Shown here: positions 1,747 through 52,052 of the stretch, in pieces
Position numbering within the stretch: the stretch's first letter is position 1
How the letters are laid out: the number at the start of each line of letters is the position of its first letter
Sequence record: PQ843332.1
Length of the DNA stretch: 64,000 nucleotides
Strand: one strand, 5' to 3'
Source: Escherichia phage P-GXEC-L2P5
Program-made: the position numbers and the translations under genes
The notes under the pieces: generated by a model
Told to the model about the DNA's origin: nothing
Databases searched by the model: none
The model's input: only the letters and a program-made list of their open reading frames with translations

Positions 1747-1822
1747 TATTCCACCCGTGTAAACTGTAATGAGTGTTCTGTATTGCTACCGGATTGCGTT
1801 TTACGTTTTGGTTTAATCGCCA

Positions 1823-2253: not shown

Positions 2254-2301
2254 TGTCTCGTCCTCTAAAAAGAGGCCCGCTAATATGCGGGCCGGATAAT
2301 A

Positions 2302-2427
2302 TTAATCTTCACCGCCGAGTTGTTTATAAACCTCGTCCGGGTCGTCGCCTCTTTCTTCGCAGAAGGCGGTGAATGCCGCCCAATTTTCTGCTATGAAATC
2401 GAGCATGATTCTCATTTCATAGTCCAT
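2302..2427 (-). CDS. small hypothetical protein (41 aa)
   Basis: Hand-translated MDYEMRIMLDFIAENW...; start directly after the upstream stop; conserved in unit 2. Confidence 0.35.
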   Translation of the reverse strand: MDYEMRIMLDFIAENWAAFTAFCEERGDDPDEVYKQLGGED

Positions 2428-2431
2428 GATA

Positions 2432-2950: not shown

Positions 2951-3264
2951 GGTATATCTCCGATTGGTTAAGTTTAGGTGTCGGCAGTTAACTTCGTCGG
3001 TGGCCTTAACATATTGCCAGGTTGCGCGTTCTCCCGTTCGGGTAGTGGACCTGGTTATATAATCACGGTTGGGAATCCTGACACTTCGATCCGGCCCCTG
3101 CGTTGCCCCTCCTTTCGGGTAGTGGACCTGGTTATATAATCACGGTTGGGAATCCTGACACTTCGATCCGGCCCCTGCGTTGCCCCTCTCCAGTTTGCGT
3201 CCTGCATCCTGTCGACGAGGTGAATGATAGATTGGTTGCAGGATGGGTGTCAACAACTAATTTC

Positions 3265-3298
3265 AAAAAAAAAGCGCCGAGGCAAAATGCGACGGCGC
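3265..3298 (-). terminator. rho-independent terminator on the minus strand inside the control region
   Basis: Stem GCGCCG/CGGCGC with 13-nt loop followed on the minus strand by a 9-10 T run; stem conserved in unit 2. Confidence 0.5.
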
Positions 3299-3369
3299 TA
3301 ACCAATAAGAGACAATGAGACGGGAATTATTATTACACGCGTGCGCGCCCGTTTCAATATCCAAAGGAT

Positions 3370-3398
3370 TTGACACCATGCAGTTTTAGGTGTAGTTT
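3370..3398 (+). promoter_or_regulatory. candidate sigma70-like promoter for the rightward operon
   Basis: Perfect TTGACA at 3370..3375, 17-bp spacer, weak -10 TAGTTT; conserved in unit 2. Confidence 0.35.
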
Positions 3399-3429
3399 CG
3401 TTGGTCATTAACCAACAGGAGACTGAATT

Positions 3430-3759
3430 ATGAATATCAAAGAAGCAATTGAAGTGTTATCTAATGCAATCCGCGGCGAAGCGGGTAAATCCTGGTATTA
3501 CACAAATGCGGTGGATACTCTGTTATTTGAAGTGTCCAGATTATCGCGTGCTGAGAAGGAGCTTACCGCGAAGCTGGAATTGCTCAACGGCACGGCAGCA
3601 AGCAAGCTGCAAAAACACAATGAAGAAATGGAAGAATACAAAAAGCAGGTTATCCGTTTGCGCAATGAGGGAAAGTCATGGGCAATGATCGCCGAGTTGA
3701 CCGGAATTAATCAGAGCACAGTGCGCTCCTGGGTACGCAATAATAAAACTTCAAAGTAA
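3430..3759 (+). CDS. HTH DNA-binding regulator
   Basis: C-terminal GKSWAMIAELTGINQSTVRSWV helix-turn-helix; first gene of the rightward operon. Confidence 0.6.
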   Translation: MNIKEAIEVLSNAIRGEAGKSWYYTNAVDTLLFEVSRLSRAEKELTAKLELLNGTAASKLQKHNEEMEEYKKQVIRLRNEGKSWAMIAELTGINQSTVRSWVRNNKTSK

Positions 3760-3846
3760 GGCAACGGCAATGAGCTTGATTAAATTCGCTGTAACACGAC
3801 CCGCTAAAAAAGGCGAAAAAGCCAGGTTCGAAGTAAGGCAACGGCA

Positions 3847-6111: not shown

Positions 6112-6255
6112 ATCCTGCGCGCATTGGTTGCCGGTATGGGAATTCCCATATCGCTAAAAGGTTAAATTTTGCGCGCATTGGTTGCCATTTTGAGTGTTTT
6201 TATCGGGTCGTATTGGTTGCCGTGTAGTGTAAATATAATGAATAGTTATGCAGTT

Positions 6256-6428
6256 TTATTGCATAAAGTAAGCGGGACAGAAAGCGGGACAAACAAGGGG
6301 CGGGACAAAGCGGGACAGCACCCCCGTCCCGCCCCGTATGGCGCGGCCTGGAGAGGAGCGGGACAGGCGGGACAACCCCCAGTCTTTCAGACTAGACGGG
6401 GGTCAGCGGCCCCCCTCGTCTGAGACTG
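6256..6428. repeat. iteron array: six GCGGGACA direct repeats preceded by TGCATAAA, then a GC-rich imperfect hairpin
   Basis: GCGGGACA at 6272, 6284, 6299, 6310, 6358, 6367; inverted repeat cagtctttcagactagacggggg / cccccctcgtctgagactg. Confidence 0.7.
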
Positions 6429-6645
6429 AATAAAATCCGGGGATTGCAAAATACACGGCAGCATGATGCGAAGTGCGGTCGCGGATGAACTAGGCAACCA
6501 ATGCGAGTTGCATTATGCGAAGTGAAAAATGCGGTTTGCAGTCACAGCAGATAGCGATCAACTTTTTCATGCGCGTGATTAATATTGGTTGCGTTCCGCC
6601 TGGCACCTTGCTATATTGGTTGCACCCCAACATGAGGACTGAACA

Positions 6646-6972
6646 ATGAAAGCGATTATCTGGAATTACGCAATGGCTATGGCGGCGGCACAAGAAGCGG
6701 CGGAGTTCGCCGGTGAAGGAGCGGAAGCGGTCGAAAGACTATCGGCAGCGTGGTCCGTTGTTCGCGTCACGCAGCAGGCCATCGCTTGTATGCTGGAGCG
6801 CCGCTTCGACACGATGGCGGAGATCCAGCCACTGGCGAACGCAATCCAGGACTACGCGCTTGCATTTGCCCGTGAGCGCCTTGCGTATCGCTTCGGGATC
6901 GGCGAGACGGCAGTGACAAACGTCGCCCGGATTAAAGCCCAGCGTGAACTATTCGCCCAGCTTGCGAAATAA
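6646..6972 (+). CDS. hypothetical protein (108 aa, alanine-rich helical)
   Basis: ORF conserved in unit 2 (56423..56749). Confidence 0.55.
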   Translation: MKAIIWNYAMAMAAAQEAAEFAGEGAEAVERLSAAWSVVRVTQQAIACMLERRFDTMAEIQPLANAIQDYALAFARERLAYRFGIGETAVTNVARIKAQRELFAQLAK

Positions 6973-7209
6973 GGGGCCAAAATGAGCCGTTGACGCAGAC
7001 TCGCTACTTGCACCAGTTCGCAGCGCAACACGATTTCAGGGTGCGGACTTCCTTGCAACCAATGGGAATACGCAGACACGCTACTTGCACCAGTTCGCAG
7101 CAAAACACGATTTCAGGGTGCGGACTTCCTTGCAACCAATGGGAATTCGTATTACATTACGCCGGAAGCCCGCCGTTGAGCGGGTAGGCAAACACTGGAG
7201 ACTGAGCAA

Positions 7210-7464
7210 ATGACGCCAATGCAAATAACGCTAATGGCAGGGTATTCGCAGGAGTTTATCGACCTCGTATCCTGCTATGACGACTACACCCATTACGGCA
7301 TCGCTACGGTATGCGACGGCGACAACCTTACAGCCGACGAGCTTGATGAGGTCGACGACTACACTACCGAGGAACTTTGCGCGCTGATGTGCGGCGTGCC
7401 TGTATGGGCGAAAGAGTCCCCACTAGCCGCAGACGGCGACAACATGTACAGGTACAGAAAGTAA
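7210..7464 (+). CDS. small protein whose C-terminal ~45 aa mimic the DNA polymerase C-terminus; absent from unit 2
   Basis: DDYTTEELCALMCGVPVWAKESPLAADGDNMYRYRK versus polymerase DDYTTEELCALMCDLPIWAKGFPLAAEGDCMYRYRK. Confidence 0.5.
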   Translation: MTPMQITLMAGYSQEFIDLVSCYDDYTHYGIATVCDGDNLTADELDEVDDYTTEELCALMCGVPVWAKESPLAADGDNMYRYRK

Positions 7465-7536
7465 GATTATGAAAGCATCGATTAGCAAAACATTAAACTT
7501 CCCCGCAGCACGGTTAAACTTTAAGGAGACAGAACA

Positions 7537-8109
7537 ATGAAATTACTATTCCGCCGTAAGCACGATGGCCGTATCCTGAAGCCGATCCAAACCCTGGATT
7601 CCCACGTCCGCTTACAAAACGCGGCTGGCGGTCGGGTGTGGTGGGCAAAGAAATACACGCTGCCGGAAAACTTCGACGTACTAACTCACGATATCGAGCG
7701 CGGCGATGTGCTGCGTGATATTCGCGACGGCGGATTGTGGGTCGTCGAGTATGTCGGCCGTCATGGCCTGCGTATGCAATCCCGCAAGGATGGCGTAGTG
7801 GGTAACATACAGAGGGGTATGACGTACTTTGGGCTAATCAACTACGAGCGAGTGGGGCGCAAGTACAGCCTGCGCGACCGCCAGCCTCATGAGCGCGTTG
7901 AGTTCCGCAAGTCGCAGCCCGCGTATGCCACTTACGACGCGAGCAAAGTGATGGAGCCGATCCGCCAGGCCACGCGTGAGATAGTCAATCGCTTTGATGC
8001 CGTGACGAATGCACAGCGCCAGGCGCGGGAATACGGTGTGGGATTTATCCGTGTCGAACCAGACGGCAGCATGAAGGCCATCGACCCGCGCTCGGTGATT
8101 ATGAAATGA
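7537..8109 (+). CDS. hypothetical protein (190 aa)
   Basis: ORF with GGAGA RBS; conserved in unit 2 (57025..57567). Confidence 0.55.
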   Translation: MKLLFRRKHDGRILKPIQTLDSHVRLQNAAGGRVWWAKKYTLPENFDVLTHDIERGDVLRDIRDGGLWVVEYVGRHGLRMQSRKDGVVGNIQRGMTYFGLINYERVGRKYSLRDRQPHERVEFRKSQPAYATYDASKVMEPIRQATREIVNRFDAVTNAQRQAREYGVGFIRVEPDGSMKAIDPRSVIMK

Positions 8110-8252
8110 GTGCGTCTATCCGTGATATGCTCATGCACAACCGCTTTGAGATAGGCGGTCGGGTGTTTCGCAATTACTTCGTGGCGCGTGCATGGGCGCG
8201 CCATATTGGCAAACCGGAAGGGGCAATTCGATGCTATACGTCTTCGCGGTAG
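8106..8252 (+). CDS. small hypothetical protein (48 aa)
   Basis: ATGA overlap with the upstream stop; conserved in unit 2. Confidence 0.3.
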   Translation: MSASIRDMLMHNRFEIGGRVFRNYFVARAWARHIGKPEGAIRCYTSSR

Positions 8253-8316
8253 TATGTGGCGGTAGTCTGGCGGCCCTGGTGCTGTTGGCGTCGGTTATTA
8301 GTCTGGTTAAATACCT

Positions 8317-8616
8317 ATGGGGCAGATTATGATTCATGATGTGATTTATTGGTTTGGTATGGCCAGCATGTTATGCCTGGTTACGGGAGTGCTGGGCGCA
8401 ATATGGGTATTCCTGGTATGGCCTGCGGTGGAAGCTGCCAGCATTACCCGGATGACATTCGAGATCTACAAGCGCCGTGGAATAACGGAGCACCCGACCA
8501 GGCTTCGGATGTGGTGGCTGTGGTATCGGGATATGATAGGCGGTCGAACATTCGAAGCCGTCCGCTCATCCGGGTGGGAGTGGAAAGGCGTCGGCAAGTT
8601 GTCCGTTTTCGATTAA
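8317..8616 (+). CDS. small membrane protein (lysis-associated candidate)
   Basis: Hydrophobic segment FGMASMLCLVTGVLGAIWVFLVW; identical ORF in unit 2. Confidence 0.45.
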   Translation: MGQIMIHDVIYWFGMASMLCLVTGVLGAIWVFLVWPAVEAASITRMTFEIYKRRGITEHPTRLRMWWLWYRDMIGGRTFEAVRSSGWEWKGVGKLSVFD

Positions 8617-8668
8617 TTATGCAAGCGTGATATAGTCCCAGTGAGCTAAAACTTACTGGGACTTTTTT

Positions 8669-9007
8669 ATGGATAAGCTAAACGAGTGGTTATTCGCCCT
8701 CGCATGTCTGGCTGGCGGCTTCGTAGGCGCACGCATTCATGGCGAGGCTACGAAAGGGCCGCTAAACTTCGTGTTATATATCGTGGTCGGCTTCTTGTGT
8801 GCCGTTTTTGGCGCTCCAGCGATTGCCGAGTGGGCGGGCTTATCTGGTGAGCGCACTGTCGCCGGTTTGGGGTTCGTAACTGCAATCTTCTGGATGCCAA
8901 TAGCCGCCCGGATCAGGGAGACTATTGAGTCGTTCCGACTTCCGGGGGCGCAAAATGATTATCTCCGTCCTGTTGTTTGTTATCATCGGGGCTTCGTCCC
9001 TGTTTAA
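8669..9007 (+). CDS. holin-like membrane protein; C-terminus differs from unit 2 by a 1-nt indel
   Basis: Two or three predicted transmembrane segments; directly upstream of the endolysin. Confidence 0.5.
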   Translation: MDKLNEWLFALACLAGGFVGARIHGEATKGPLNFVLYIVVGFLCAVFGAPAIAEWAGLSGERTVAGLGFVTAIFWMPIAARIRETIESFRLPGAQNDYLRPVVCYHRGFVPV

Positions 9008-9031
9008 CGTGTATGCGCCGGGGGGCGCAAA

Positions 9032-9277
9032 ATGATTATCTCCGTCCTGTTGTTTGTTATCATCGGGGCTTCGTCCCTGTTTAACGTGTATGCGCCGTCC
9101 GTCCGGGATGGCATTTTCGGTCGGGTGCTATATCTGCTAACGGCGATGATCTGCGTTATCGGATTGTTGCAAACAGGAGACGTATCTGACACCACCTGGA
9201 CCGCGTTAATCTGGCTGTTTGCATTGCGCACGCTGCGTAATGCTGTTTTGAATGGGGTAAAACATGCGATTCAGTGA
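9032..9277 (+). CDS. small membrane protein (holin/antiholin candidate)
   Basis: MIISVLLFVIIGASSLF and LLTAMICVIGLL hydrophobic segments; overlaps the endolysin start. Confidence 0.5.
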   Translation: MIISVLLFVIIGASSLFNVYAPSVRDGIFGRVLYLLTAMICVIGLLQTGDVSDTTWTALIWLFALRTLRNAVLNGVKHAIQ

Positions 9278-9755
9278 CAACGGTCTACGATTTACGGCAG
9301 CATGGGAGACGTTTAGCCCGGTGCCGTATTTCGCGACTAAGAAAGAGCAGGCCCGCGGCCTGTACACCTGGGGTTATGGTCACACTGGCACTAACCCGCC
9401 TCGAAGCATTACCCGCGCGGAAGCGCTGGAGCTACTTAAGCGCGATGTGGCGTATGCTGAGGACTGGGTGAACAAATACGCGCATAATAGCATTAACCAG
9501 GCGCAATTCGACGCGCTGGTGGACCTGGTTATCAATGCAGGTCAAGGTCCGATCGTACCGGACCATATTGCCAATGACTTCGACGACGCGGTGCGCTTGG
9601 GCGACTGGGCGAAGGTCCGTGCTACGCTGCCGCAGTTCCGCAAGCAAGGCGGCGAAGTGCTTAAGGGTCTGGTACGCCGTGCAATCGGCAGACAGGCGTT
9701 GTTTGATGGTAAGCAGTGGGACGTTGCCGAACGAATCGGTCGTAACGCTGCATAA
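9264..9755 (+). CDS. endolysin, GH24 lysozyme family
   Basis: GYGHTG and NQAQFDALVDLVINAG motifs typical of lambda R / P22 gp19-type lysozymes. Confidence 0.85.
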   Translation: MRFSDNGLRFTAAWETFSPVPYFATKKEQARGLYTWGYGHTGTNPPRSITRAEALELLKRDVAYAEDWVNKYAHNSINQAQFDALVDLVINAGQGPIVPDHIANDFDDAVRLGDWAKVRATLPQFRKQGGEVLKGLVRRAIGRQALFDGKQWDVAERIGRNAA

Positions 9756-9771
9756 TACGAGGGGACACGAT

Positions 9772-9939
9772 ATGTTAAAAAGTATTCTTGATCATAATGC
9801 GGACGCGCTTGCCGCACTGGCTAAAACCGAAGACCCAGGCGCACGCGCTATCATCGCGGACTCTATCAACCACGCGGGGGTCTTTGATGCGAAGCTGCCA
9901 AGCCCACCACCGCCGGAAGAACCCGGCCCCGCAGCGTAA
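9772..9939 (+). CDS. small hypothetical protein (55 aa, proline-rich C-terminus)
   Basis: GAGGGGA RBS; no cysteine, so not an Rz1-type lipoprotein. Confidence 0.3.
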   Translation: MLKSILDHNADALAALAKTEDPGARAIIADSINHAGVFDAKLPSPPPPEEPGPAA

Positions 9940-9946
9940 ACAATCA

Positions 9947-9971
9947 AGCCCGGATAATACCGGGCTTTTTA
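9947..9971 (+). terminator. rho-independent terminator
   Basis: AGCCCGG-ataata-CCGGGCT followed by TTTTTAT. Confidence 0.75.
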
Positions 9972-9975
9972 TTGC

Positions 9976-10005
9976 TTGACTCGCAACCAACATAGGGGCC
10001 ATACT
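9976..10005 (+). promoter_or_regulatory. candidate sigma70-like promoter overlapping two GCAACCAA motifs
   Basis: TTGACT, 18-bp spacer, CATACT (TATACT in unit 2). Confidence 0.4.
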
Positions 10006-10176
10006 GCAACCAACCAACGAGAGGAGTAATCAAGATGGCACGTAAAGATATTTGGGTATTGGCAATCTGGACCACCGCAGCTTTCATCGGCATGGTTATT
10101 TGCGAATTGATATAGCCCGCCGCCATATGGACCGTGGTATATTGTCCACGGTCAACTAATCAGGAATTAATTAAAT

Positions 10177-11473
10177 ATGCACCCGCAAACTAAAATTACC
10201 GATGAGCAATTGATCACAGAAATTCAGGCAGGGACTACGGTTAAAGAGATTGCGAAGAAATACGGCATTGCACTTCGAAATGTCTATATGCGCAAAGCCC
10301 GCCTGTCGAAAAAGGGGATTGGTCATGGCAATTATGCCGTGATCCGTAAGCGCGTTGCCGATGGCTTTGGGGTTAAGCGCGTATCGGCCCTGGTGCGCGG
10401 TAATGGCGAAGAGGTCATGTCGTGGGTCATCACTGAGCAGGACAAGGAGCGCCAACTCGAAGCTATGCGCGCTGTTGTCGAGGGTATGAACAGCGAAATC
10501 ACACCGGCAGCGCCAGTAAACGCCCCGCCAGTACCGATCCCATGCGCGCTGTTGTCGAGGGTATGAACAGCGAAATCACACCGGCAGCGCCAGTAAAAGC
10601 CCCGCCAGTACCGATCCAGGCGCTAGACTTGCTCAACCTGTACACCGTGTCCGACTTCCACCTGGGTATGCTGGCATGGGGCGAGGAGACTGGCGAAGAT
10701 TGGGATATGGCGATCGCCGAAGACCTGTTCTACCGCTGGTTTGTCGAAGCCTTCGCCCGCGCACCGGACGCAGGCACTGCCGTGATCAATATCCTCGGCG
10801 ATATGGCGCACTTTGATAGCCTTGATGCCGTCACACCGGCAAGCGGTCACGTATTGGACGCCGACACCCGATACCAGAAGTTAGTCCGCTACATGATCCG
10901 CATGGTGCGCAACGTGGTAGACCTGGCGCTGCAAAAACACCACAAAGTCAAACTGCTAATCGTCCAGGGTAATCATGACGAGTCAGGCATGATTTGGCTT
11001 GCTGAGATGTTCAACACGCTGTACGAGAACGAGCCGCGCGTCGATGTGGATACGATGAGTCGGGCATGATTTGGCTTGCTGAGATGTTCAACACGCTGTA
11101 CGAGAACGAGCCGCGCGTCGATGTGGATACGTCCCCGGACGTCTACAAGATGGTGCAGCACGGTAAGACCACACTATTTTTCCACCACGGGCACAAAGCG
11201 CGATTTGACGCTATCGAGCCGGTCATGATTTCGAAATTTCGTGAGGCGTTCGGGTCCAGCCAGTACAGCTATGCGCACGTAGGACACCTGCACCACCAGA
11301 AGATTGTCGAATCGCGCAACATGATTGTTGAACAGCACCGCACGCTTGCCGCGAAGGATGCCTACGCCAGCCGAGGCGGTTGGATGAGCGGACGCAGTGC
11401 AAACGTGATAACCTATAGCGCCAACTACGGCGAAGTAGCGCGCTTAACCATTAGCCCGGAAATGTTGAAATGA
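10177..11473 (+). CDS. HTH domain fused to calcineurin-like metallophosphoesterase; frame broken by duplications near 10490..10600 and 10980..11075
   Basis: N-terminal HTH TVKEIAKKYGIALRNVYMRKARL; phosphoesterase motifs DFHLGM, GDMAHFD, GNHDE, HHGH, GHLHH; reads as one ORF in unit 2 apart from a single duplication. Confidence 0.7.
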
Positions 11474-11715
11474 TCAGACAAGTATTCATGAGCACGCAGG
11501 CCACCCGCCTGAAAGAACTACGCAAGCAACTCGAAGGCTTGCGCCGATTTGAACGAACGGCAGCGGCAGTCGGAATGTCGATGGACGAGAGGATCGAAAT
11601 ACTGTCGCAAATACGCTACACAGAAGGCGCGATAAGAGAAGTACAAAGCATGTTAACCCGATACTACGGGCGCGGATACTATCGCAAATACGCTACACAG
11701 AAGGCGCGATAAGAG
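11470..11715 (+). CDS. small hypothetical protein present only in unit 1
   Basis: ORF with internal artefact duplication; the whole ~290-bp segment is missing from unit 2. Confidence 0.35.
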
Positions 11716-11767
11716 AAGTACAAAGCATGTTAACCCGATACTACGGGCGCGACGTTTAAACCGCGCA

Positions 11768-11793
11768 GCCCCACCGATTTGGTGGGCTTTTTT
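11768..11793 (+). terminator. rho-independent terminator
   Basis: CCCACC-gattt-GGTGGG followed by CTTTTTTGT. Confidence 0.7.
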
Positions 11794-11798
11794 GTGCC

Positions 11799-11807
11799 TG
11801 TTATAAT
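11799..11807 (+). promoter_or_regulatory. extended -10 promoter element upstream of the terminase genes
   Basis: TGtTATAAT perfect extended -10; conserved in unit 2. Confidence 0.45.
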
Positions 11808-11855
11808 CCCCTTAGATGGCAGGGCCGTCTCTTATGTTGCCGATGGTCGGCGCAT

Positions 11856-12428
11856 ATGCACAAAAGGGCTTATATCATGGCAGAAATTAAAGTTAAAGGC
11901 CGTCGCGCTAAACTGGACGGACGAGTAGCAGTTACCCCGCGCCGTAAACCAGGCGAGCAAACCGAGCACACCAATCTCGGACCTGAAATCGAGTACGGAA
12001 AGCGCCGTAAAGGCGGCAAATGTGGACGCCCTACTGACTACCGATCCGTTTACTGCGACCAGCTTCGCCGCTATTTTGCCGACGCCGACGCATGGCAGGT
12101 CAACTACTCCGATAAAGGCGCTGCGCAAGTAATCCCCCGGAACAAAATGCCAACCTTCGGCCGATTTGCCGCTGAAATCGGCGTGGGTGTAGCTTGCTTG
12201 TATCGCTGGGCGCGTGCGCATGAGGAGTTTGCCGAGGCGATGGCGGACGCAATGGAGTTGCAGAAAACTTTCCTGATGGAAGCTGGCGGCGTAACCATCG
12301 CGGCGGGCTTCGCTACGTTCCTGCTTAAAGCAAACCACGGCGTCCGCGACGATGTACCGCTGGATGACGACGAAGATGATAACGGCGACGTAGTTGTCGA
12401 ACCTTCCGGCAAAGGTCAGGGTGAATAA
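11856..12428 (+). CDS. terminase small subunit
   Basis: GRPTDYRSVYCDQLRRYFADA region and acidic C-terminus; immediately upstream of TerL; alternative start 11877. Confidence 0.65.
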   Translation: MHKRAYIMAEIKVKGRRAKLDGRVAVTPRRKPGEQTEHTNLGPEIEYGKRRKGGKCGRPTDYRSVYCDQLRRYFADADAWQVNYSDKGAAQVIPRNKMPTFGRFAAEIGVGVACLYRWARAHEEFAEAMADAMELQKTFLMEAGGVTIAAGFATFLLKANHGVRDDVPLDDDEDDNGDVVVEPSGKGQGE

Positions 12429-13890
12429 TGCGTAACTATGCGGCAGAACACCGCGCACTGGAACGCGCGATCGCAAAGCGTAACCGACCGCCACGCCCGA
12501 CACGCGTTGCGCAGGCCGTCCGCCTTTACCAGCCAGATTGCCTTCCGCACCAGGTCGAACTGCTGCGTGACACGAAGACTAAAATCCTCGGCCTGTGTTC
12601 CGGCTTCGGTGGTGGGAAGTCGTGGGTCGCAGCCCGTAAGGTAATCCAGCTTCTGACACTTAACCCCGGTCATGATGGCATCGTAACAGAACCGACGATT
12701 CCCCTCCTGGTTAAAATCATGTATCCGGAATTGGAAAAGGCATTCGACGAGGCGGGCTTCCGGTGGAAGTTCAATAAGCAGGACAAGATCTATAACGTGC
12801 TTGTGAAAGGCAAATGGACCCGCGTTATCTGTGAGTCAATGGAGAACTATACCCGCCTGATCGGGGTTAATGCCGCGTGGATTGTTGCCGACGAGTTCGA
12901 TACCACGAAGCAAGACGTCGCGCTGGCGGCATATCACAAATTGCTCGGTCGTCTGCGTGCTGGCTTCGTCCGCCAGTTCGTCATCGTGTCAACGCCTGAA
13001 GGCTACCGGGCGATGTATCAAATTTTCGAAGTGGAGAAGGATAGCCAGAAGCGTTTGATCCGGGCGAAGACCACCGATAACCACCACTTACCGGCAGACT
13101 TTATCGACACGCTGCGCAGCCAATACCCGGCTAACCTGATTGATGCGTACTTGAACGGCCTGTTTGTCAACCTTACGTCGGGCGCGGTGTACAAGATGTT
13201 CAACCGGGAGGAGAACGCCAGCACCGAAGAAGTGCAGCCGGAAGACACGCTGATTATCGGCATGGACTTTAACGTCACGAAGATGGCGGCGGTCGTGTAC
13301 GTCAGACGGCAGCGCATCACCGAAAACAAGGAGTTCCGCGACGAGATCCACGCAGTGGATGAATTTGTGGACCTGTTTGATACCCCGGCTATGATTGAGG
13401 CGATCGAGGAGCGCTACCCCGATCATTGTGCTGCCGGTCGTGTTGTCGTTTACCCGGATAGCAGCGGCAAGTCTCGCAAGACTGTTAACGCATCGTCGTC
13501 AGATATCGCACAACTGGAAGACGCGGGCTTCGAGGTGGAATACGACAGTGTTAACCCACCTGTGAAAGACCGATTGATCGCGATGAATACTATGATGTGC
13601 AACTCGAAGGGTGTGCGCCAGTATTTGTTAACCCGCCTGTGAAAGACCGATTGATTGCGATGAATACGATGATGTGCAACTCGAAGGGTGTGCGCCAGTA
13701 TTTTGTCAACCTGGATAAATGCCCTACACTAGCGAAATGTCTGGAACAGCAGGTTTACGACCTGAAGAAAGGCGAGCCGGATAAAACCGCCGGTGTGGAC
13801 CACATGAACGATGCCGCGGGCTATCCAATTGCGCACCTGTTCCCAGTGATTCGCCCAATCGCCGTTGTTCCAACTGTAGACTTCTACTAA
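12428..13890 (+). CDS. terminase large subunit (ATPase plus nuclease); 3' part frame-broken by duplication near 13560..13680
   Basis: Walker A GFGGGKS, Walker B IVADEFD, C-terminal nuclease region VDHMNDAAGYP. Confidence 0.85.
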
Positions 13891-13900
13891 GGAAACGACC

Positions 13901-15652
13901 ATGACCGTTAACGTAGACAACCAGCACCCGCTCTATGCGCGCATCGCGCCAGAGTGGAAAATGATCCGTGACTGCGTAGCAGGGGAGCGCGTGACAACCA
14001 GCACCCGCTCTATGCTCGCATCGCGCCAGAGTGGAAAATGATCCGTGACTGCGTAGCAGGGGAGCGCGCCGTGAAGGCGTGCGGGCCATTATACCTGCCA
14101 CACCCAGCAAGCGGCGACACCACCGACCCTAAATCGCGTGCGCGTTATAAGGCGTATAAGCAGCGCGCCGTCTTCCTGAACGCCACCGCCAGAACCCTTA
14201 ACGCACTGTTAGGCGTGGCCTTCGCGAAGCCGGTGAGTATTGACCTTTCCGGGGCAATGGCTGACCTGATTGATGACGTAGACGGCAGCGGGATGCCACT
14301 GGCGCAACTCCTGCGCGGTGCTATGTCGGAAGTGCTGCAATCAGGCCGTGCGGGCTTTATGGTGGACTACGATCGCCAGGCGCATTTTGATGAACTGGGT
14401 AACGTAGTTCCGCAGACAGCCGCCGAGATGGCGTCACACCGCCCTCTTATCCGCCTGTACACGGCAGAACAGATCATCAACTGGCGGCAGACCAACGGCG
14501 TCGATACGCTAATTGTGCTGAAGGAAACGGACGAAATCAGCACCGAAGACCCGGACGACTTCGCAAACCACGAAGTAACAATCTGGACCGAGCTTCGCAT
14601 GATTAACGGTGCGGCACACGCCCGCCGCTGGTACTACAACGCGGACACGTCCGAGGTGCAAATGGACTTGCCGCGCGGCTTCACCCGAACCGACCTTGTA
14701 CCACTGGTGGATGCTGCCGGTAACGCGCTTACGCAACTACCGTTTTGCTGGTGCGGTGCGGTGGACAACAACGCAACGCCTGACGCCGCTCCGCTGGCGG
14801 ATATCGCATCCATCAACATTAAGCACTACAACGCCGAAGCGGACGTCGCCGAGATTGCGCACATCGTGGGCCAGCCTACCCTAGTTGCGACGGGCTTGAC
14901 CCAATCATGGGCGGACAAGAACCTGAAGGGCGGCATTGCCCTCGGTGCGACTAAGGGCGTTATCCTGGGCCAGAACATGGACGCTAAACTGATCCAGGCG
15001 GAGGAGCGCAACTTGTCTGTTGCACTGTGTGAGCGTCGCGAATTGCAAATGGCTAAACTTGGCGCGGCCCTGGTCGAGAAGGGGACCGCACCTAAGACGG
15101 CAACGGAAGCGGCCTACGATGCGCAGTGGCTAAACTGGGCGCGGCCCTGGTCGAGAAGGGGACCGCACCTAAGACGGCAACTGAAGCGGCCTACGATGCG
15201 CAGACTGATAACAGTATCCTGTCACTGATTGCCGGTAACGTCGAGAAGGCTTTCAACCGTGCGCTGCAAATCGTCCAGCTATTCACGGGCGACACCGCCG
15301 ACCAGCGTGTGACGCTGAATAAGTTCTACACCGAAATCACGGTTGATGCGCAGCTTATGACCGCGATGATGTCGGGTGTGCAGACGGGTACGGTCCGCCT
15401 GGCTGACTTCATCAAGTGGATGATGGCGCAGGGTGTCATCGACGACTCGCAAACCGTCGAGCAGGTGGAAGACGAATTGCGAAATCAGAATCCATTGCCT
15501 CAAATGTCCCCGTTATTGATGACTCGCAAACCGTCGAGCAGGTGGAAGACGAACTGCGAAATCAGAATCCATTGCCTCAAATGTCCCCTGATGCGGTAGA
15601 ATCTACCGAAGAAGACCCGGACAAGGTAGCGGACAATGGCGAAGACAATTAA
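13901..15652 (+). CDS. portal protein; frame broken by three duplications
   Basis: Large ORF directly after TerL and before the head morphogenesis gene; assignment by position and size only. Confidence 0.6.
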
Positions 15653-16816
15653 TCAACATTTGGCGGATCGAATGATTCGCCGTCACATCTTCACCCAGCG
15701 CCTGAGCAATGATCAGGCGCGGAGGGTGCTGGCTATGTGGGAGAAGTTCCGGCCCACTTTACTTGGTAAGCTGACCGAGTTACTTGATGGCAAAAAGTCC
15801 ATGAGCAACAAGGCACTTACCACACTGTTAACCCAAATCGACAAGACCGTCAAAACGGAACTGCGCGCCGAGTTTAAAGTGCTGGCGGAGAGCCTTCAGG
15901 AGTTCGCCGACACCGAGGCTGATTATCTCGCGGACACACTAACGGCAGCGATCCAGCCCGCTGTCGCTGTACCAGCGGTTGAGGTGGTGGGTGTAGTTAC
16001 GGGCGCGCAGATTGCAGCGACTGCAATGAAAAACCCGTTCCAGGGAAACACCATGATGCAATGGCCTGATTCACTTTCCGAGTGGACTAGGACGCAGATC
16101 GGCAATCAGGTGCGCGCTGGATTCATCCAGGGCAAGCCGACGATGGAAATTATCGCGGATGTGAGGCGCGCGCTAGGCGGTCGTAGTGCGCAAGCAATCT
16201 CAAGCGTTGTTAAGTCCGCGGTCAACCACTATGCGGCGACCGCCCGCGAATTAATGGTAAAAGCTAATGACGATATTCTCGAAGGTCGCCAATGGTTGGC
16301 TACATTGGACACGCATACTTCTCCCATGTGCCAGCTACGCGATCGCCTGTTTTATCCGGTTGATGTCAATGGTTATCTACATTGGACACGCATACTTCTC
16401 CCATGTGCCAGCTACGCGATCGCCTGTTTTATCCGGTTGATGTTACTCCCGACACCAAAGGAAAGCGCGGCGGGAAAGTGGTGGCGGGGTCACAATATGG
16501 CGCTGGTCCGGGCAAGCTGCATTATTGCTGCCGTTCGACGGAGACGTGGAAAGTCAAAGGTATGGAAGATTGGCCCAGTGGTAAGCGTCCGGCACTGAAG
16601 GCTGACGCAGGCAGATTGCTGAGTGAGCAGGTCGACGCGCAGACTGATTTCTTCTCATGGGTGCAGCGCCAGCCGCGCCATATTCTGGAGGAATTATATG
16701 GGGTGCAGCGCGCCGATCAGATTATGCGCGGCGTGAAAGTGCCGAAGATGTTCACCGATACTGGCGAACTAATGACTATTGCACAGCTTAAAAACCGGGG
16801 GTTATGGCGTGATTAA
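15636..16816 (+). CDS. head morphogenesis protein (Mu F / SPP1 gp7-like)
   Basis: ATLDTHTSPMCQLRD motif typical of the family; duplication near 16300..16420. Confidence 0.7.
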
Positions 16817-17138
16817 GTATGCAGCGATTGGGCTGGTTATCGGTCTGGTGGTAGGATTCTGGCTAGGTGACTCCTATCGCGCTGGCGTAGTGGCGGAGGC
16901 GGCGCAAGAAGCGCAAGCAGAAGCCCAACGGCAGCAAACTAAAGTTATTGAGCGCTCCGTGCAGGCCGAACAAGCCCGCGACGTAGAATACCGGACTATC
17001 ACGAAAGAGGTTGTTAAATATGTTACGCGCCCTAACCGCCCTGATTGTAGTTTTGATGCTGAGCGCGTGCGGATCAAGCAACGTGCCGTTGATGCCGCTA
17101 ACGGAGTCGGCACTGCGACCGCCGTGCAAGTTCGATAG
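16809..17138 (+). CDS. i-spanin (Rz-like)
   Basis: N-terminal transmembrane segment AAIGLVIGLVVGFWLG then coiled-coil AEAAQEAQAEAQRQQ; GTG start with GGGGG RBS (alternative ATG 16779). Confidence 0.55.
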   Translation: MIKYAAIGLVIGLVVGFWLGDSYRAGVVAEAAQEAQAEAQRQQTKVIERSVQAEQARDVEYRTITKEVVKYVTRPNRPDCSFDAERVRIKQRAVDAANGVGTATAVQVR

Positions 17139-17327
17139 AGCGCGTGCGGATCAAGCAGCGTGCCGTTGATGCCGCTAACGGAGTCGGCACTGCGACCGCC
17201 GTGCAAGTTCGATAACCCGTCCGCGGACCCCGACGAAGATTTGATGATTGACGTGAAAAATATGGAATGCGGGGCGAAGCTGAGGGCGCAGGTCCTGGAG
17301 TTGCAGCAGATAATTCGGGGGCCGTAA
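17020..17327 (+). CDS. o-spanin lipoprotein (Rz1-like) overlapping the i-spanin in the +1 frame; interrupted by duplication 17140..17214
   Basis: Signal peptide with lipobox LSAC|G, proline-rich mature part, AAGAGG RBS. Confidence 0.55.
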
Positions 17328-17342
17328 TGGCCCCCTTTTATT
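17316..17342 (+). terminator. rho-independent terminator
   Basis: GGGGGCC-gtaat-GGCCCCC followed by TTTTATT. Confidence 0.75.
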
Positions 17343-18105
17343 AGCGCGGAATACCGCAGATTTCGTTTAACGTCTTCACGTCCAGTGCCACCGCCGTGGA
17401 CTTCGGCTTGTCCGGGTATGGAATAAACTGTTCCACTTCAGGCCACGCCTTGATCAGCTTCTTATCGGTATTGTGCATATCCAGCACACCGGTAACGGTT
17501 AGTTTGAACGCGTCATACTTAGCTCGCAACTCGCGGCGGGACTTGTCGTTGCGATCCAGGCACTTACAGAAATCATGGTCCGCCGGGTAGTCTACGCGAC
17601 CGCGCGGAAGATATATCGGCAGCGATTTTCCGTCCTCGTCCACTTCGCACACTGAAGCCAGCATAACTTCCTCGTACCCCGGTACGATATCACCGAGATC
17701 GGGAGATAGCTTGTTCATATATTTCTCTTCCCAGTATCCGCGGTGCAGGCGGTATCGGTATCCATCGCCGCTCAATGATACGGTGCGAACATTACCGCCT
17801 GCGTTGATATCGAATCCGGCGCTATAAACGCGGCCGATGCCTTTTGGCCGGTCGGAGTTATAGCTATACGTCGCCTTGTCGGTGTAAACGCTAACGCCAT
17901 ACATCTGCGACTGGTTATCGCGGATTTCTGCGATATATGCGCGTAACTCGGCGAACGTGCGAATGCCTTCCGGCATACAGTCCAGCGTAATGGCGTACGC
18001 CAAGTCGCGAGAGTCCATCATGATGGATTTTGCTTCGGTCGCGATTTCATGGTCGCGCAGGATGTTAGCCAGAATCTGGTTTTTAATGTCTTTCGTCAGT
18101 CTCAT
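17341..18105 (-). CDS. hypothetical protein (254 aa), opposite-strand moron gene
   Basis: ORF 17341..18192 with the likely start at MRLTKDIK (AAGAGG RBS); no recognisable motif. Confidence 0.5.
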   Translation of the reverse strand: MRLTKDIKNQILANILRDHEIATEAKSIMMDSRDLAYAITLDCMPEGIRTFAELRAYIAEIRDNQSQMYGVSVYTDKATYSYNSDRPKGIGRVYSAGFDINAGGNVRTVSLSGDGYRYRLHRGYWEEKYMNKLSPDLGDIVPGYEEVMLASVCEVDEDGKSLPIYLPRGRVDYPADHDFCKCLDRNDKSRRELRAKYDAFKLTVTGVLDMHNTDKKLIKAWPEVEQFIPYPDKPKSTAVALDVKTLNEICGIPR

Positions 18106-18119
18106 TTGTGTGTCCTCTT

Positions 18120-18281
18120 TTAGTGGTTGTATAATTCGCCGCGTGCGTCGGCATCTTCCATTTGGTGTAGTGCGTGTTTCTGGTCCTGGCAAGGAATCCA
18201 GCGTTCCTCTAATTTATGCCAGAAGTAAAACACCCCGTTATCCAGCTTAATCTCGGCAATACCGTTATTGAAAGTTAGCAT
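18120..18281 (-). CDS. small hypothetical protein (53 aa), first gene of the moron unit
   Basis: GAGGG RBS; ATTGGTTGCA tandem motif immediately upstream. Confidence 0.4.
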   Translation of the reverse strand: MLTFNNGIAEIKLDNGVFYFWHKLEERWIPCQDQKHALHQMEDADARGELYNH

Positions 18282-18430
18282 TTTGTTACCCTCATTTGTT
18301 GGTATGCAACCAATATACTGCAACCAATCCACCAATGCAAGCAAATTTTGCGATTATTTTTATCGCTGATAATATTAGAAGCGTGAAGTCGAGCGGGTGG
18401 CCTGCTCTGCCACAATCCCAGGGGGATAGC

Positions 18431-19212
18431 ATGAAACTTACTAAAGCAGAATATGACGCGTTGCCGGAAGGTATGAAGGCGCTTTTTGTTGCCGATGGCG
18501 ACGGGTATAAATCAACGTTCATGACCGCAGAAGAAGTACAGGCGGAAATCAAGGGTCTGAAAGACAACAACGCTAAGCTGGTGAGCGAGAAGAAAGCAGA
18601 AGCTGAACGCCGCGCCGAAGCTGAGCGCCTTGCGAAAGAGAAAGAGGAAGCCGCCGCGCGCAAAAATGGCGACCTCGAAGCGATCGATAAGTCCTGGAAA
18701 GATAAGTTTGCGAAACACGAAGCAGACACATCGGGAAAAATCGAAGCCTACCGCAAGCAGATCCACGACCTAACCATCGGCAGCGCTGCCAAAGACCTGG
18801 CATCGAAGCTATTCGGTAAGAATGCGGGCATCATGCAACGCCACGTAATGGACCGCCTGACGCTGGAAGACGGCGAAGACCGAAGCTGTTCGGTAAGAAT
18901 GCGGGCATCATGCAACGCCACGTAATGGACCGCCTGACGCTGGAAGACGGCGAAGACGGCAGCTTGAAAGTGCGTGTCTTGCAGGATGGCAAACCGTCCG
19001 CGCTGACTATGGAAGAGCTTGAAAAAGAGTTCCGTAATAACGCCGATTTTGCATCCGTCCTGGCTGGCACGCCAGCCGGTGGTGCGCCGAGCAAACCGAC
19101 GCAGGTTGTCGAAGATGTGAAGTCGAAAATCACTATGGGCCATAGCTTCGGTATCACTGACCTTACGAAACAGGCGGGGGATATCATCGCGAAGATGGGC
19201 GACGACGAGTAA
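18431..19212 (+). CDS. scaffolding protein
   Basis: Charged coiled-coil protein (AEAERRAEAERLAKEKEEAAARK) directly upstream of the major capsid gene; duplication near 18815..18960. Confidence 0.6.
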
Positions 19213-19216
19213 GCAG

Positions 19217-19243
19217 ATCGCCCGCGAAAGCGGGCGATTTTGC
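19217..19243 (+). terminator. weak terminator or attenuator
   Basis: ATCGCCCGC-gaaa-GCGGGCGAT with a short T run. Confidence 0.4.
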
Positions 19244-19386
19244 TAGCGCGGAAATCTAAGGTAACATTAACGTCACTGGGCGAATGCTCACAACTCAAAG
19301 GATTTCGATATGTCTTTAACAGTGTTCCAGCGTAAACTCGTTACCGCGGTTACGGGGCGAATGCTCACAACTCAAAGGATTTCGAT

Positions 19387-20641
19387 ATGTCTTTAACAGT
19401 GTTCCAGCGTAAACTCGTCACCGCGGTTACGCAAATGATCCCCGACAACCTGAACGTGTTCAACGCCGCCGCCAATGGCGCTGTTGTTCTCGGTACTGGT
19501 GAAGTGCTGAAGGATGTTATTGAGAAAATGTCCGTAGGCTTGATCGCCAACCTCGTTACCGACCGTAACGCCTACGCCCCTGTCGGCACTCCGGCAACCG
19601 CGAAAGTTCTGGCGCGTATGCTGACCAACTCGGTTAACCTTTCCGCAAAAGTGGGTCCGGTAGCAATCACTAAGGCTATGATGGCTAAGATCGAAACCAA
19701 CCCAACTCAGTTAACCTTTCCGCGAAAGTGGGTCCGGTAGCAATCACTAAGGCTATGATGGCTAAGATCGAAACCAACGTTAACAGCGTTGCGGCTGAGA
19801 TTGCGGCACAGGCTACTCAAGCGATTATGCTGCACTACCTGAAAGCTGGTATCGGCGCAAGTAAAGCGGCGATCGAAAGCAACGCAGCGGCAAAATACAC
19901 CCAACCGGCGCGCGTTGACGGCGTTGGCGGTCGTACCTTCCCGACCCTGTCGAAAGCAACGCAGCGGCAAACTACACCCAACCGGCGCGCGTTGACGGCG
20001 TTGGCGGTCGTACCTTCCCGACCCTGGCAGACTTCCCGCTGGCGGCTTCTAAGTTCGGCGATCAGGCGTCTTTGATTAAGTCCTGGTTTATGGACGGCGT
20101 TACCTGGGCAAACTTCATTGCGTACCAGGCACTCCCTTCCGCTGAACAGGTATTCGCAATTGGCGATCTACAGGTAATGGGTGATGGCCTGGGCCGTCGA
20201 TTCATTATCTCCGATGCCGCTGCCGATTCTATGGGCGCTGGTAACATGCTGGGTCTGGTTCCTGGCGCGGTTGCAGTTACCACCAACGGCCTCGATATGC
20301 TGGCGCAGGAGAAAGGCGGTAACGAGAACATCGAACGCTGGTGGCAGGGCGAGTTCGACTTCAACGTGGCCGTTAAAGGCTACCGTCTGAAGGCGTCCGC
20401 TCGTACCCCGATCGAAGGTGTGCGCTCGTTCAAGCTGGACGATATCACCACTTCCGCTAACTGGGAACTGGACCAGGGCCAGGTAGACAACGCACCGGCA
20501 ACCGTGCAGGATGTTGGCGCTGTGGGGGATGGCGATACTAAAGGCCGTCGTAAGACCCAGGCCGCACAGGCAGTGCCTACCCGCCACATCAAGGAAACGG
20601 CTGGCGTACTGGTTACGCTGACTGCGACTACCGCGTCTTAA
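19387..20641 (+). CDS. major capsid protein; frame broken by duplications
   Basis: About 370 aa once duplications are collapsed; follows scaffold and is followed by a strong terminator; assignment by position. Confidence 0.7.
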
Positions 20642-20699: not shown

Positions 20700-21200
20700 A
20701 TGTATGGCGACCCGCAAACCTTTATTGATTATGCCGCTGCGCGAGGCGTTGAAGTCACGCTGAGCGATGCAACGCGACACCTTACCATCGTTAATGACTT
20801 CCTTAACGGCATCAACTGGATCGGCGAACCGGCGGACCAGACAGGAATAGACGCATGGCCCCGCATCAATTACCCATCGGACGGTAAGCCGGTGCGCGAC
20901 ACGCTAACCGAAGTCGTGGCGGTAGTGCCTGCCAGGCAAATCGTAGACTTTGCATCAATCCCCGTTGCCGTTGAGCAAGCTGTTTACCGGCTGGCGCTGT
21001 TGGTGGCGGACGAGATCGATATTTCTCCGGTCGGCGATGGTAAAGAGACTATCCGCGAAACGGTCGGCCCGATAACGATGGAATATGACCCGGCGTCGAT
21101 TGGTAGCGGGGTGTCGTTCCCGTGGTGGGATGGCTTGTTAGGGCACTGGGTTGATTCTGGCGGCAACGCCGCAGGCAATTTCGACGTATTCAGGGGGTAA
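20700..21200 (+). CDS. putative head-tail connector/adaptor protein
   Basis: ORF 20670..21200 with ATG at 20700; assignment by position. Confidence 0.4.
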   Translation: MYGDPQTFIDYAAARGVEVTLSDATRHLTIVNDFLNGINWIGEPADQTGIDAWPRINYPSDGKPVRDTLTEVVAVVPARQIVDFASIPVAVEQAVYRLALLVADEIDISPVGDGKETIRETVGPITMEYDPASIGSGVSFPWWDGLLGHWVDSGGNAAGNFDVFRG

Positions 21201-21307
21201 TATGAATCCTGCATTACTCGCGGCGATAATCGCCGCCAACACTAAACAGCCGCCGGAACAAGAACCGGAGCCAGAACCAGTACAACCGGCACAGGAGAGC
21301 GAAGAAG

Positions 21308-21661
21308 ATGGCGGGCTTTAATTACGCAGGATTAAAGCGGAAAGTGAATCCGCTGATTAAAAAATTCGGCATGACCGTTACGGTTACGCGTCCGGGATCG
21401 GTTGACCGTGTAGACGGCGACGAAGTGGTAATCCCGCCAACGTCGTTTGACGTCATCGGTCTTCGCGAGGAGTACAAGCCTAGCGAGATCGACGGAACGC
21501 GTATCGTTGCCGGTGATGTGAAGTTTTTATGTCGGGCGGTTGAGCAATTGCGGGTGGGCGACCTTGTTAACCTGAACGGCACTGACTACCGGGTAGTCAA
21601 CCCGAACCCACTGCAACCGGCTGGCACTACCATGCTGTTTCAACTACAGCTAAGGGGCTAA
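21308..21661 (+). CDS. putative head-tail joining protein
   Basis: 117-aa ORF in the head-tail junction block. Confidence 0.4.
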   Translation: MAGFNYAGLKRKVNPLIKKFGMTVTVTRPGSVDRVDGDEVVIPPTSFDVIGLREEYKPSEIDGTRIVAGDVKFLCRAVEQLRVGDLVNLNGTDYRVVNPNPLQPAGTTMLFQLQLRG

Positions 21662-21739
21662 CGTGGCTGAAGTCTACTCATTCGCCGCCACTATTGCTAC
21701 GTACGACCATGCTGTTTCAACTACAGCTAAGGGGATAAC

Positions 21740-22487
21740 GTGGCTGAAGTCTACTCATTCGCCGCCACTATTGCTACGTGGGTGGATAAGACGAAGGAGA
21801 ACAACGATAAGGCGGTGCGGGCGTACGGAATGCAAATACTCGGACGCCTTATTGAGATCTCCCCGGTGGGCGACCCTCGCCGGTGGAAGATTAACAAGGC
21901 CTACGCGCTTGCACGCGAACACGCGAACAAGGTGAACGCCGCGCAGCGCCGCAAGAATGGCGGCAAACTGAAGCGCGGGCAGAAGAAGCACGCCAGTGTG
22001 CTCATCTCATTCAAAACTAAAAACGGCAACGTCACGTTCCGCCAGCGTGGCTGGGCTGCGAAGAATTACACCGGCGGACGCTTCCATTCAAGACTAAAAA
22101 CGGCAACGTCACGTTCCGCCAGCGTGGCTGGGCTGCGAAGAATTACACCGGCGGACGCTTCCGGGGAAACTGGCAGGTTACGTTCGACCGACCGGCGGTC
22201 GGCGCTATTGACCGCGTGGACAAGGCCGGAACGGCAACATTAGCCGCAGGGCGTGAAGTGCTGGCGCATTACGATTCCGGTGAATACGCCGCGTGGACAA
22301 GGCCGGAACGGCAACATTAGCCGCTGGGCGTGAAGTGCTGGCGCATTACGATTCCGGTGAATACGGGTCGATCTGGTTTACTAACAACGTGCCATACGCG
22401 CAGCGACTTGAGTATGGCTGGAGTAAACAAGCGCCCGCGGGGATTGTTCGCGTCGTAGCGGCAGAAATTAATTCGAAGGTGAAATAA
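21740..22487 (+). CDS. putative head closure / tail attachment protein (HK97 gp10-like); frame broken by duplications
   Basis: ORFs 21740..22243 and 22293..22487 are contiguous once duplications are collapsed. Confidence 0.4.
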
Positions 22488-38947: not shown

Positions 38948-38997
38948 GTTTACTATAGTGCAACCAACCTATTGGTTGCAAGTGAATTTTGCAACGT

Positions 38998-39516: not shown

Positions 39517-39606
39517 TTCAATTCCTCAATCAAATTTGCACGAACAATTGATCCATTAATAACGCCATCCAGATCACAAATCAGTAATTTCATTTCAATT
39601 CCTCAA

Positions 39607-40887: not shown

Positions 40888-40968
40888 CGTGTCGTCTCCG
40901 GGTATTAAAAAGGGCGTCCAAACCGGACACCCTCAATATAATGCAACCAATCTAATTATGCAACCAAT

Positions 40969-52048: not shown

Positions 52049-52052
52049 GATA

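Follow-up and report, generated by a model that had tools for sequence, protein, structure and literature searches.

What are two genes doing on the opposite strand of a phage's late structural region? The question is raised by a locus in Escherichia phage P-GXEC-L2P5 (sequence record PQ843332.1), of which the whole 64,000-nt stretch analysed here is called the window. At this locus the gene nmad5, encoding a protein of 254 amino acids (aa), and a 53-aa open reading frame (ORF) lie on the minus strand between the spanin and head scaffolding genes. A first-pass annotation, made from the sequence alone, had described them as a self-contained two-gene moron, of a kind that often has a role in exclusion, defence or anti-defence. 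We lean, with some confidence, towards another answer: an early-type Dhillonvirus nmad5 unit, composed of a core gene for a non-enzymatic protein and a swap slot that holds a small accessory cassette. The coding features are as follows.

17341..18105, minus strand: nmad5, 254 aa, ATG start, ribosome-binding site (RBS) GAGGA, Pfam Nmad5 family.
17347..17580, minus strand: conserved C-terminal module of Nmad5 (approximately aa 176-253), the sole part common to distant phages.
17458..17460, minus strand: AAG codon of Lys216, the site of the K-to-E change of phage SM_A8 that gives escape from the Tmn defence.
18120..18281, minus strand: 53-aa ORF, homologue of EK99P-1 gp08, ATG start, RBS GAGGG 8 nt before the ATG.
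18118..18294, minus strand: 177-bp accessory cassette, between the promoter leader and the nmad5 ribosome-binding site.

Both ORFs have exactly the lengths first given, each with an ATG and a Shine-Dalgarno sequence, and their position agrees with the gp05-gp09 order in the RefSeq entry of phage EK99P-1, with Rz/Rz1-like spanin genes on one side of the unit and the head scaffolding gene on the other. There, gp07 (765 nt) and gp08 (162 nt) occupy the same position on the minus strand, both labelled "hypothetical". The 2.6 kb around the locus has matches in 158 phage records, nearly all of them Escherichia Dhillonvirus, with slur05 (98%) and EK99P-1 (95% over the full length) as the closest genomes. 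The window is Dhillonvirus, a virulent E. coli siphophage resembling these two. No integrase, excisionase or CI-type repressor is listed in the complete EK99P-1 annotation, and the earlier suggestion of expression in a lysogeny-like state is inapplicable to a phage for which neither an integrase nor a repressor is annotated.

The first-pass annotation saw no recognisable motifs in either protein, which is wrong for the larger one. Residues 1-253 align with the entire profile (1-206 of 206) of Pfam PF18757 (Nmad5; E 1.1e-55, 189.4 bits against a cut-off of 27), and the protein also falls in PHROG 1965. The C-terminal signature of the family, T-x2-K-L-x3-W-P-E ... L-N-x2-C-G-x-P, is present as T213, K216, L217, W221, P222, E223, L246, N247, C250, G251 and P253. 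Within the genus, the protein combines a helical bundle with a variable β-rich middle (aa 51-150), where most of the variation lies, and a C-terminal module that is almost invariant; like aa 181-254, the N-terminal helix hardly changes. Further afield, in Stx/lambdoid, Yuavirus, Bordetella and Vibrio phages, tblastn matches are confined to aa 157-253, and G104, L217, W221, P222, L246 and N247 are the only residues invariant across all 35 diverse Nmad5 sequences. The gene was thus already known.

Is nmad5 a recent arrival? It is found in approximately 149 of the 158 Dhillonvirus records, and tblastn recovers it at no less than 80% coverage in 145 phage records at 84-99.6% identity, the highest being the slur05 protein (99.6% at the aa level). 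Its G+C content (GC) of 52.8% is close to the 54.4% of the window. Pairwise ratios of nonsynonymous to synonymous divergence (dN/dS) between Dhillonvirus strains are 0.05-0.18, so the gene is under purifying selection; diversifying selection, which an aa identity similar to the nucleotide identity had suggested at first glance, is ruled out by the same values. Synonymous divergence (dS) between strains is 0.28-0.69, three to four times that of the adjacent Rz gene (0.08-0.19, with one near-identical pair at about zero).

Loss of the gene is tolerated in nature, and two relatives carry disrupted copies. In SM_S24, a natural 238-bp deletion, equivalent to 17359..17596 of the window, has removed the C-terminal module including K216 (SM_S24 stretch compared: 1520-2074), while the Opt212 gene is frameshifted.

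The cassette behind the promoter leader has a different history. It is missing from Dhillonviruses with an empty slot, as the alignment gap against SM_S24 and a comparison of the slot in eight phages demonstrate, and its GC of 44.6%, shared by the 53-aa ORF, lies well below that of the window. Only three of 50,697 phage records contain the ORF, those of EK99P-1, Dru_SM5 and the window phage, and in these it is identical at 162 of 162 nt, beside nmad5 genes that are only 85-89% identical in nucleotide sequence. This identity next to divergent neighbours, together with the low GC, indicates recent horizontal spread, and the evidence points to a rare, recently acquired accessory insertion that has spread by recombination. 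The slot is hypervariable and holds at least four states.

Empty: slur05, Opt212, LM40P1 and SM_S24.
53-aa ORF: EK99P-1, Dru_SM5 and the window phage.
104-aa gene (phrog_24635): 60 Dhillonvirus records, and also a Pantoea phage and large myoviruses.
172-aa gene: SM_W22.

The 104-aa and 172-aa cassettes have a common 5′ leader and 3′ hairpin, GGGGCGAAAGCCCC, whereas the flanks of the 53-aa cassette differ. The cassette proteins have no similarity to one another or to other genes of the phage. Homologues of the 104-aa protein at 57-64% identity occur in the Pantoea phage and in 150-kb Escherichia and Salmonella myoviruses, and its gene appears from these matches to be a widely travelling accessory gene. 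In the 172-aa protein of SM_W22, an internal segment of 36 aa is duplicated exactly and in tandem (stretch compared: 2356-2874).

Could the 53-aa ORF be no gene at all, and the 177-bp insertion be non-coding, such as a regulatory or leader RNA or the scar of a recombination event? No divergent homologue of the 53-aa protein is present in 5.8e9 proteins (two clusters only), in the 50,697 phage records or in IMG/VR (EK99P-1 only), and the protein has no match in Pfam, PHROG, NCBIfam or PADLOC. Identical copies offer no substitutions by which coding constraint could be judged, which suits a non-coding insertion. On the other side, the ORF fills 162 of the 177 nt and follows an RBS at 8 nt from its ATG; a single-sequence AlphaFold2 model predicts a compact fold of three β-strands followed by one helix (predicted local distance difference test score 71); the other occupied states of the slot are clearly protein-coding, including the 104-aa gene with its PHROG family match at E 3.5e-67; and Rfam gives no credible RNA family in 16000-19500. 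A non-coding insertion is therefore quite unlikely.

These two histories bear on the earlier moron reading, by which both genes were acquired horizontally for exclusion, defence or anti-defence. Several features speak for it: the opposite orientation, a promoter-like element and terminator of the unit's own, the three- to fourfold excess of nmad5 synonymous divergence over its flanks, the hypervariable slot upstream, and the published effect of nmad5 mutations on the outcome of the Tmn defence. For the large gene, however, it does not hold. We conclude that nmad5 is a genus-core gene and not a moron, because it is near-universal in the genus, has native GC, is under purifying selection and uses the phage's own promoter motif. 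The narrow distribution and deviant base composition of a moron are found only in the 53-aa cassette (three records, GC 44.6%), and a temperate carrier with prophage expression does not fit a phage whose EK99P-1 relative lacks annotated lysogeny genes. Moreover, only a missense allele protects against Tmn, since the wild-type gene does not and its deletion is neutral. As an account of both genes, the moron is improbable; for the 53-aa ORF, which behaves as an acquired accessory, that part of the description may stand.

What, then, drives a unit that runs against the structural genes? The signals at its two ends are as follows.

17317..17342, both strands: convergent intrinsic terminator, GGGGGCC-GTAAT-GGCCCCC followed by TTTTATT on the plus strand.
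18305..18314 and 18319..18328, minus strand: two exact copies of ATTGGTTGCA.
18312..18340, minus strand: predicted sigma-70-type promoter of the unit, TTGCAT (18340..18335), 17-nt spacer, TATATT (18317..18312).
18348..18375, plus strand: predicted promoter of the scaffold and capsid genes, divergent from that of nmad5, TTGCGA, 16 nt, TGaTAATAT (extended -10).

The first-pass annotation had placed a terminator at one end of the unit and a tandem motif at the other, and both were borne out. In a terminator scan, the G+C-rich hairpin spans 17317..17335 with its T-run reaching 17342. It folds stably on both strands (-19.9 and -20.7 kcal/mol, z-scores -2.6 and -3.8) and is kept, with variants in stem length and loop, in six other Dhillonviruses: slur05, SM_A8, JLBYU60, ZCEC10, LM40P1 and Dru_SM5. 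It would thus be common to the spanin operon on the plus strand and the nmad5 unit on the minus strand. At the other end, the predicted start of transcription lies near 18305; one copy of ATTGGTTGCA sits within the promoter spacer and the second extends from the -10 hexamer to this start. Every Dhillonvirus examined retains the promoter and leader, whatever the slot contains. The putative scaffold promoter stands back to back with that of nmad5, in a region that is also conserved across Dhillonviruses.

The motif is not confined to this unit. With up to one mismatch, the window contains 27 occurrences of ATTGGTTGCA where 5.0 would be expected, and none of 100 shuffles reaches 27. The identical hexamers with the same spacing, and with the motif in the spacer, recur at 40942..40968, and at several other sites TATAGT or TATATT directly follows the motif. 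In EK99P-1, 18 of 22 matches fall within the non-coding 8% of the genome. There the motif stands 24-71 nt upstream, in the correct orientation, of gp08-nmad5, gp26-gp25, gp29, gp34, gp39 (Lar-like) and gp51, with a further site 199 nt upstream of gp49, and it precedes no plus-strand structural gene. It occupies about a dozen intergenic sites, mostly ahead of replication and other non-structural genes. A promoter-like element and a conserved convergent terminator do bound the unit, but the element is the phage's own recurrent promoter motif. Judged from the genes that share it, the nmad5 unit probably belongs to a non-structural, and probably early, promoter class of the phage.

Within the window, TTGGTTGCA sites are located at 3231, 6123-6221, 6493, 6584-6624, 7054, 10005, 35704, 38959-38980, 40942-40968 and 44274-44295, with second copies beyond 52 kb. 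They often form tandem or inverted pairs that abut TATAGT or TATATT -10-like hexamers ahead of non-structural genes. TTGGTTGCA makes up one half of a 14-bp palindrome, TTGGTTGCAACCAA, and this suggests that the protein binding it is a dimer. A candidate regulator or binder of these sites is the homologue of EK99P-1 gp49, a 109-aa protein (36467-36796) annotated "transposase" that carries HTH_23 and a sigma-70 region-4-like helix-turn-helix; its window gene lies approximately 200 nt downstream of the motif at 3231, and of ten small proteins scanned it alone is recognisable as DNA-binding. We found nothing in the literature on the TTGGTTGCA motif or on Dhillonvirus promoters or transcription.

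Other loci share parts of this arrangement. A second opposite-strand two-gene unit is present in the late region at approximately 34.4-35.7 kb (EK99P-1 20909-22098, gp26-gp25), between the tail-tip and tail-fibre genes. It encodes a 321-aa DUF6453 protein and a 73-aa ORF and is preceded by the same motif (35704, minus strand), with TTGCAA, 16 nt and then TGTAATAC. A near-copy of the nmad5 promoter and leader (TATATTGGTTGCAcACCAACA, then GAGGA and ATG) precedes the gp51 homologue; such leader copies are found at 6584-6650 and 56361-56430, and in EK99P-1 at 39490-39550. In both leaders, TTGGT...ACCAA could form a hairpin at the 5′ end of the mRNA. At EK99P-1 42725-42760 (window ~10005 and 59749-59781), a motif pair with TATAGT points away from the adjacent plus-strand genes, and a terminator-like hairpin follows it within about 40 nt; the pair may drive a small RNA or a short antisense transcript, or serve as an operator only.

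What does the Nmad5 protein do? The family name derives from the gene neighbourhood in M6-like phages, and it invites the view that Nmad5 modifies DNA bases as an enzyme or serves as an essential cofactor, and that Tmn senses the Dhillonvirus DNA so modified. Two observations favour this: in Yuavirus PAC6, in Bordetella phage CN1 and in a metagenomic relative, Nmad5 is part of a thymidine hypermodification cluster, with aGPT-Pplase1 (or the HMUDK kinase) on one side and the dUMP hydroxymethylase on the other, and the Tmn-escape mutation falls on a conserved residue. In the window, its neighbours are spanin and scaffold genes rather than nucleotide or base-modification genes. Yuavirus hypermodification enzymes (HMUDK kinase, aGPT-Pplases, pyridoxal phosphate (PLP) enzyme, radical S-adenosylmethionine (radical-SAM) enzyme and dUMP hydroxymethylase) have no tblastn homologue at E <= 0.01 in the 64 kb, a span of more than one genome, where only Nmad5 itself matches; thymidine hypermodification genes are likewise absent from the EK99P-1 annotation.

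The protein itself offers little that resembles an enzyme. Its predicted fold has no match among solved structures and no enzyme-like fold was found, no catalytic-type residue is invariant among the 35 family sequences, a sequence profile retrieves nothing below E 0.19 from PDB chains, and the defence hidden Markov models of PADLOC-DB give no family at E <= 1 for either Nmad5 or the 53-aa protein. The sole NCBIfam match of Nmad5, to a sigma factor (13 bits, E 0.064), was treated as noise.

The contexts of the gene in other phages are more telling. In all 11 other lineages, whose contexts include nine single-protein look-ups, Nmad5 is co-directional within early, replication, recombination or nucleotide-metabolism operons, and in eight of them hypermodification genes are absent nearby. 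The contexts include the following.

After N in lambdoid phages.
Beside RdgC and Kil.
At an operon start, leading to a DUF2800 exonuclease, a single-stranded DNA-binding protein and DNA polymerase.
Beside primases and helicases.
Among small early genes.
With ribonucleotide reductase, ThyX and dUTPase genes.

In the BASEL study, Dhillonviruses proved comparatively sensitive to type I and type II restriction-modification. Because of the early and replication contexts, the lack of hypermodification enzymes in the window and this sensitivity, we favour a non-enzymatic role: most likely, Nmad5 is a binding or adaptor protein that acts with the replication or DNA-metabolism machinery early in infection, with the invariant C-terminal module as an interaction surface that K216E would alter. 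The enzyme view has to contend with the same observations, with the eight contexts free of such genes, with the missing catalytic-type residues and enzyme-like fold, and with a published deletion that leaves Tmn sensitivity unchanged, which is hard to square with a sensed modification made by Nmad5. We regard it as unlikely, and the label "DNA modification enzyme" is unsupported for Dhillonvirus Nmad5.

The link to Tmn comes from work on nmad5 of the Dhillonviruses SM_A8 and SMS22 (Yamashita et al. 2025, Commun Biol, PMC11846954). Tmn escapers share one nmad5 missense change, K216E by the numbering of the 254-aa SM_A8 protein and K296E by that of the longer SMS22 annotation; its reversion restores sensitivity and its introduction confers resistance (PMC11846954). 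A phage deleted for nmad5 is viable and still Tmn-sensitive, the gene could not be cloned and is apparently toxic, and the authors offered the reading of DNA modification with Tmn sensing the modified DNA (PMC11846954). SM_S24, whose C-terminal module is deleted, is listed among the Tmn-inhibited phages (PMC11846954). In the window protein, residue 216 is K, as in SM_A8. All 34 Dhillonvirus sequences compared share this residue, as do 25 of 35 distant family members, and it adjoins the invariant L217, W221 and P222. By orthology, the window gene should be deletable, toxic when cloned and able to give Tmn escape upon K216E. The exclusion, defence or anti-defence role proposed at first pass is partly supported by these data: K216E in an orthologous Nmad5 does give Tmn escape (PMC11846954), but the wild-type gene gives no protection and its deletion is neutral.

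A head-assembly or other structural function would be suggested by position only, among head morphogenesis, spanin and scaffold genes. The unit is on the opposite strand under a promoter class that otherwise serves non-structural genes, homologues elsewhere lie in early and replication operons, deletion mutants are viable (PMC11846954), and natural truncations occur in SM_S24 and Opt212. Such a function is highly improbable.

Taken together, the favoured account of the locus would run as follows. A TTGGTTGCA-class promoter would fire leftward, against the flow of structural genes, as its counterparts elsewhere precede replication, recombination and other non-structural genes, and the nmad5 transcript would end at the hairpin terminator shared with the converging spanin operon. 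The unit would thus be of early type, lodged backwards in a late region. Its main product, Nmad5, would be a non-essential genus-core binding or adaptor protein of the early replication or DNA-metabolism machinery, and its C-terminal module would set the response to Tmn, as reported for orthologues, 86-90% identical, in which K216E escapes and deletion does not. Between the promoter leader and nmad5, a swap slot would admit small accessory genes, of which the 53-aa ORF would be co-transcribed with nmad5; a counter-defence or host-takeover role for it is plausible.

Several points weigh against this account. A generic promoter scan calls no promoter in 16600-19000; it misses the predicted one because the -35 element matches the consensus at three of six positions only. 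The word "early" depends on which genes appear to share the motif. Three of the 11 other lineages do carry Nmad5 inside thymidine hypermodification clusters, and a protein of no known fold that lacks conserved catalytic residues could still be an enzyme of a novel type or serve as an obligate cofactor. The deletion result means that Tmn is not triggered by wild-type Nmad5 alone, and the protein may be connected with Tmn indirectly. With no divergent homologues, the 53-aa ORF admits no dN/dS or substitution-pattern test of coding.

A bolder extension appears possible, though rather doubtful. In it, the slot would be an exchange site for counter-defence genes, the 53-aa protein an anti-defence factor or a modulator of Nmad5, and Nmad5 a non-enzymatic, replisome-associated orphan fold that Tmn-like immunity monitors via its C-terminal module.

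Nmad5 is a widespread phage family with a published Tmn link, in which a missense change escapes and a deletion does not. The absence of partner genes, the lack of a fold match and the early and replication contexts argue against copying the label "DNA modification enzyme" into annotations. The cassette slot and the shared TTGGTTGCA motif provide handles for engineering Dhillonviruses, which are therapy candidates, and for finding small counter-defence genes. The additions made here are incremental; they are the cassette slot, the family of promoter motifs and the finding that an enzymatic role is unsupported.

Some features of the sequence record also need to be considered. Approximately 70 tandem duplications are spread across the window at a spacing of about 900 bp, nearly all of exactly 77 bp in two copies that are 94-100% identical (for example 391-544, 17061-17214, 18804-18964 and 63829-63983), and many genes are broken by them. 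These look like untrimmed overlaps between joined assembly pieces, not biology. The nearest to the unit, 17061..17214 in the spanin gene and 18804..18964 in the scaffold gene, interrupt both flanking genes, while 17341..18345 is free of them. The window also exceeds one Dhillonvirus genome (~44 kb) and wraps at an offset of about 49.6 kb (1-14400 against ~49600-64000). The second copy resembles the first without matching it exactly, with differences in the flanks of motifs and in some of the repeat units, among others, so the record may join two related strains.

How does the unit compare with known systems? Its closest counterpart is the nmad5 gene of SM_A8 and SMS22, which shares the locus next to the capsid genes, the 254-aa length of the SM_A8 form, 86% identity and K216. 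The window allele, however, is of slur05 type (99.6%) and is preceded by the 53-aa cassette, whereas SM_A8 has the 104-aa cassette. The Nmad5 proteins of the Yuavirus (M6-like) and Bordetella CN1 clusters belong to the same Pfam family, have a C-terminal module with approximately 38% identity over aa 169-253 and are likewise co-expressed with DNA-metabolism genes; in contrast, they are about 186 aa long and flanked by aGPT-Pplase, HMUDK kinase, PLP, radical-SAM and dUMP hydroxymethylase genes. The Nmad5-like gene of lambdoid and Stx phages (PhiR12_5, HK244 immunity region) has the C-terminal module at approximately 32% identity over aa 157-253. It is early, lying directly downstream of N near recombination and host-takeover genes, but it belongs to temperate phages, is co-directional in the pL operon and encodes about 207 aa.

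A functional parallel is offered by RIIB of phage T2, an early replisome-associated protein that directly triggers Tmn (bioRxiv 2026, PMC13001434). In both cases, an early replication-associated protein is involved and escape mutations abolish the Tmn defence; for RIIB nonsense mutants escape, whereas deletion of nmad5 does not give escape. The two proteins are not related by profile comparison, as hhalign of the Nmad5 profile against T4 RIIB gives a probability of 0.4%.

Classical morons of temperate phages include bor and lom of lambda and the insertions in HK97 and HK022. Like them, the unit is small and carries a promoter-like element and a terminator among conserved late genes, and its 53-aa cassette occurs in few close relatives with deviant GC. 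Unlike them, it resides in a virulent phage, its large gene is genus-core, and the 53-aa cassette, lacking a promoter of its own, relies on that of nmad5.

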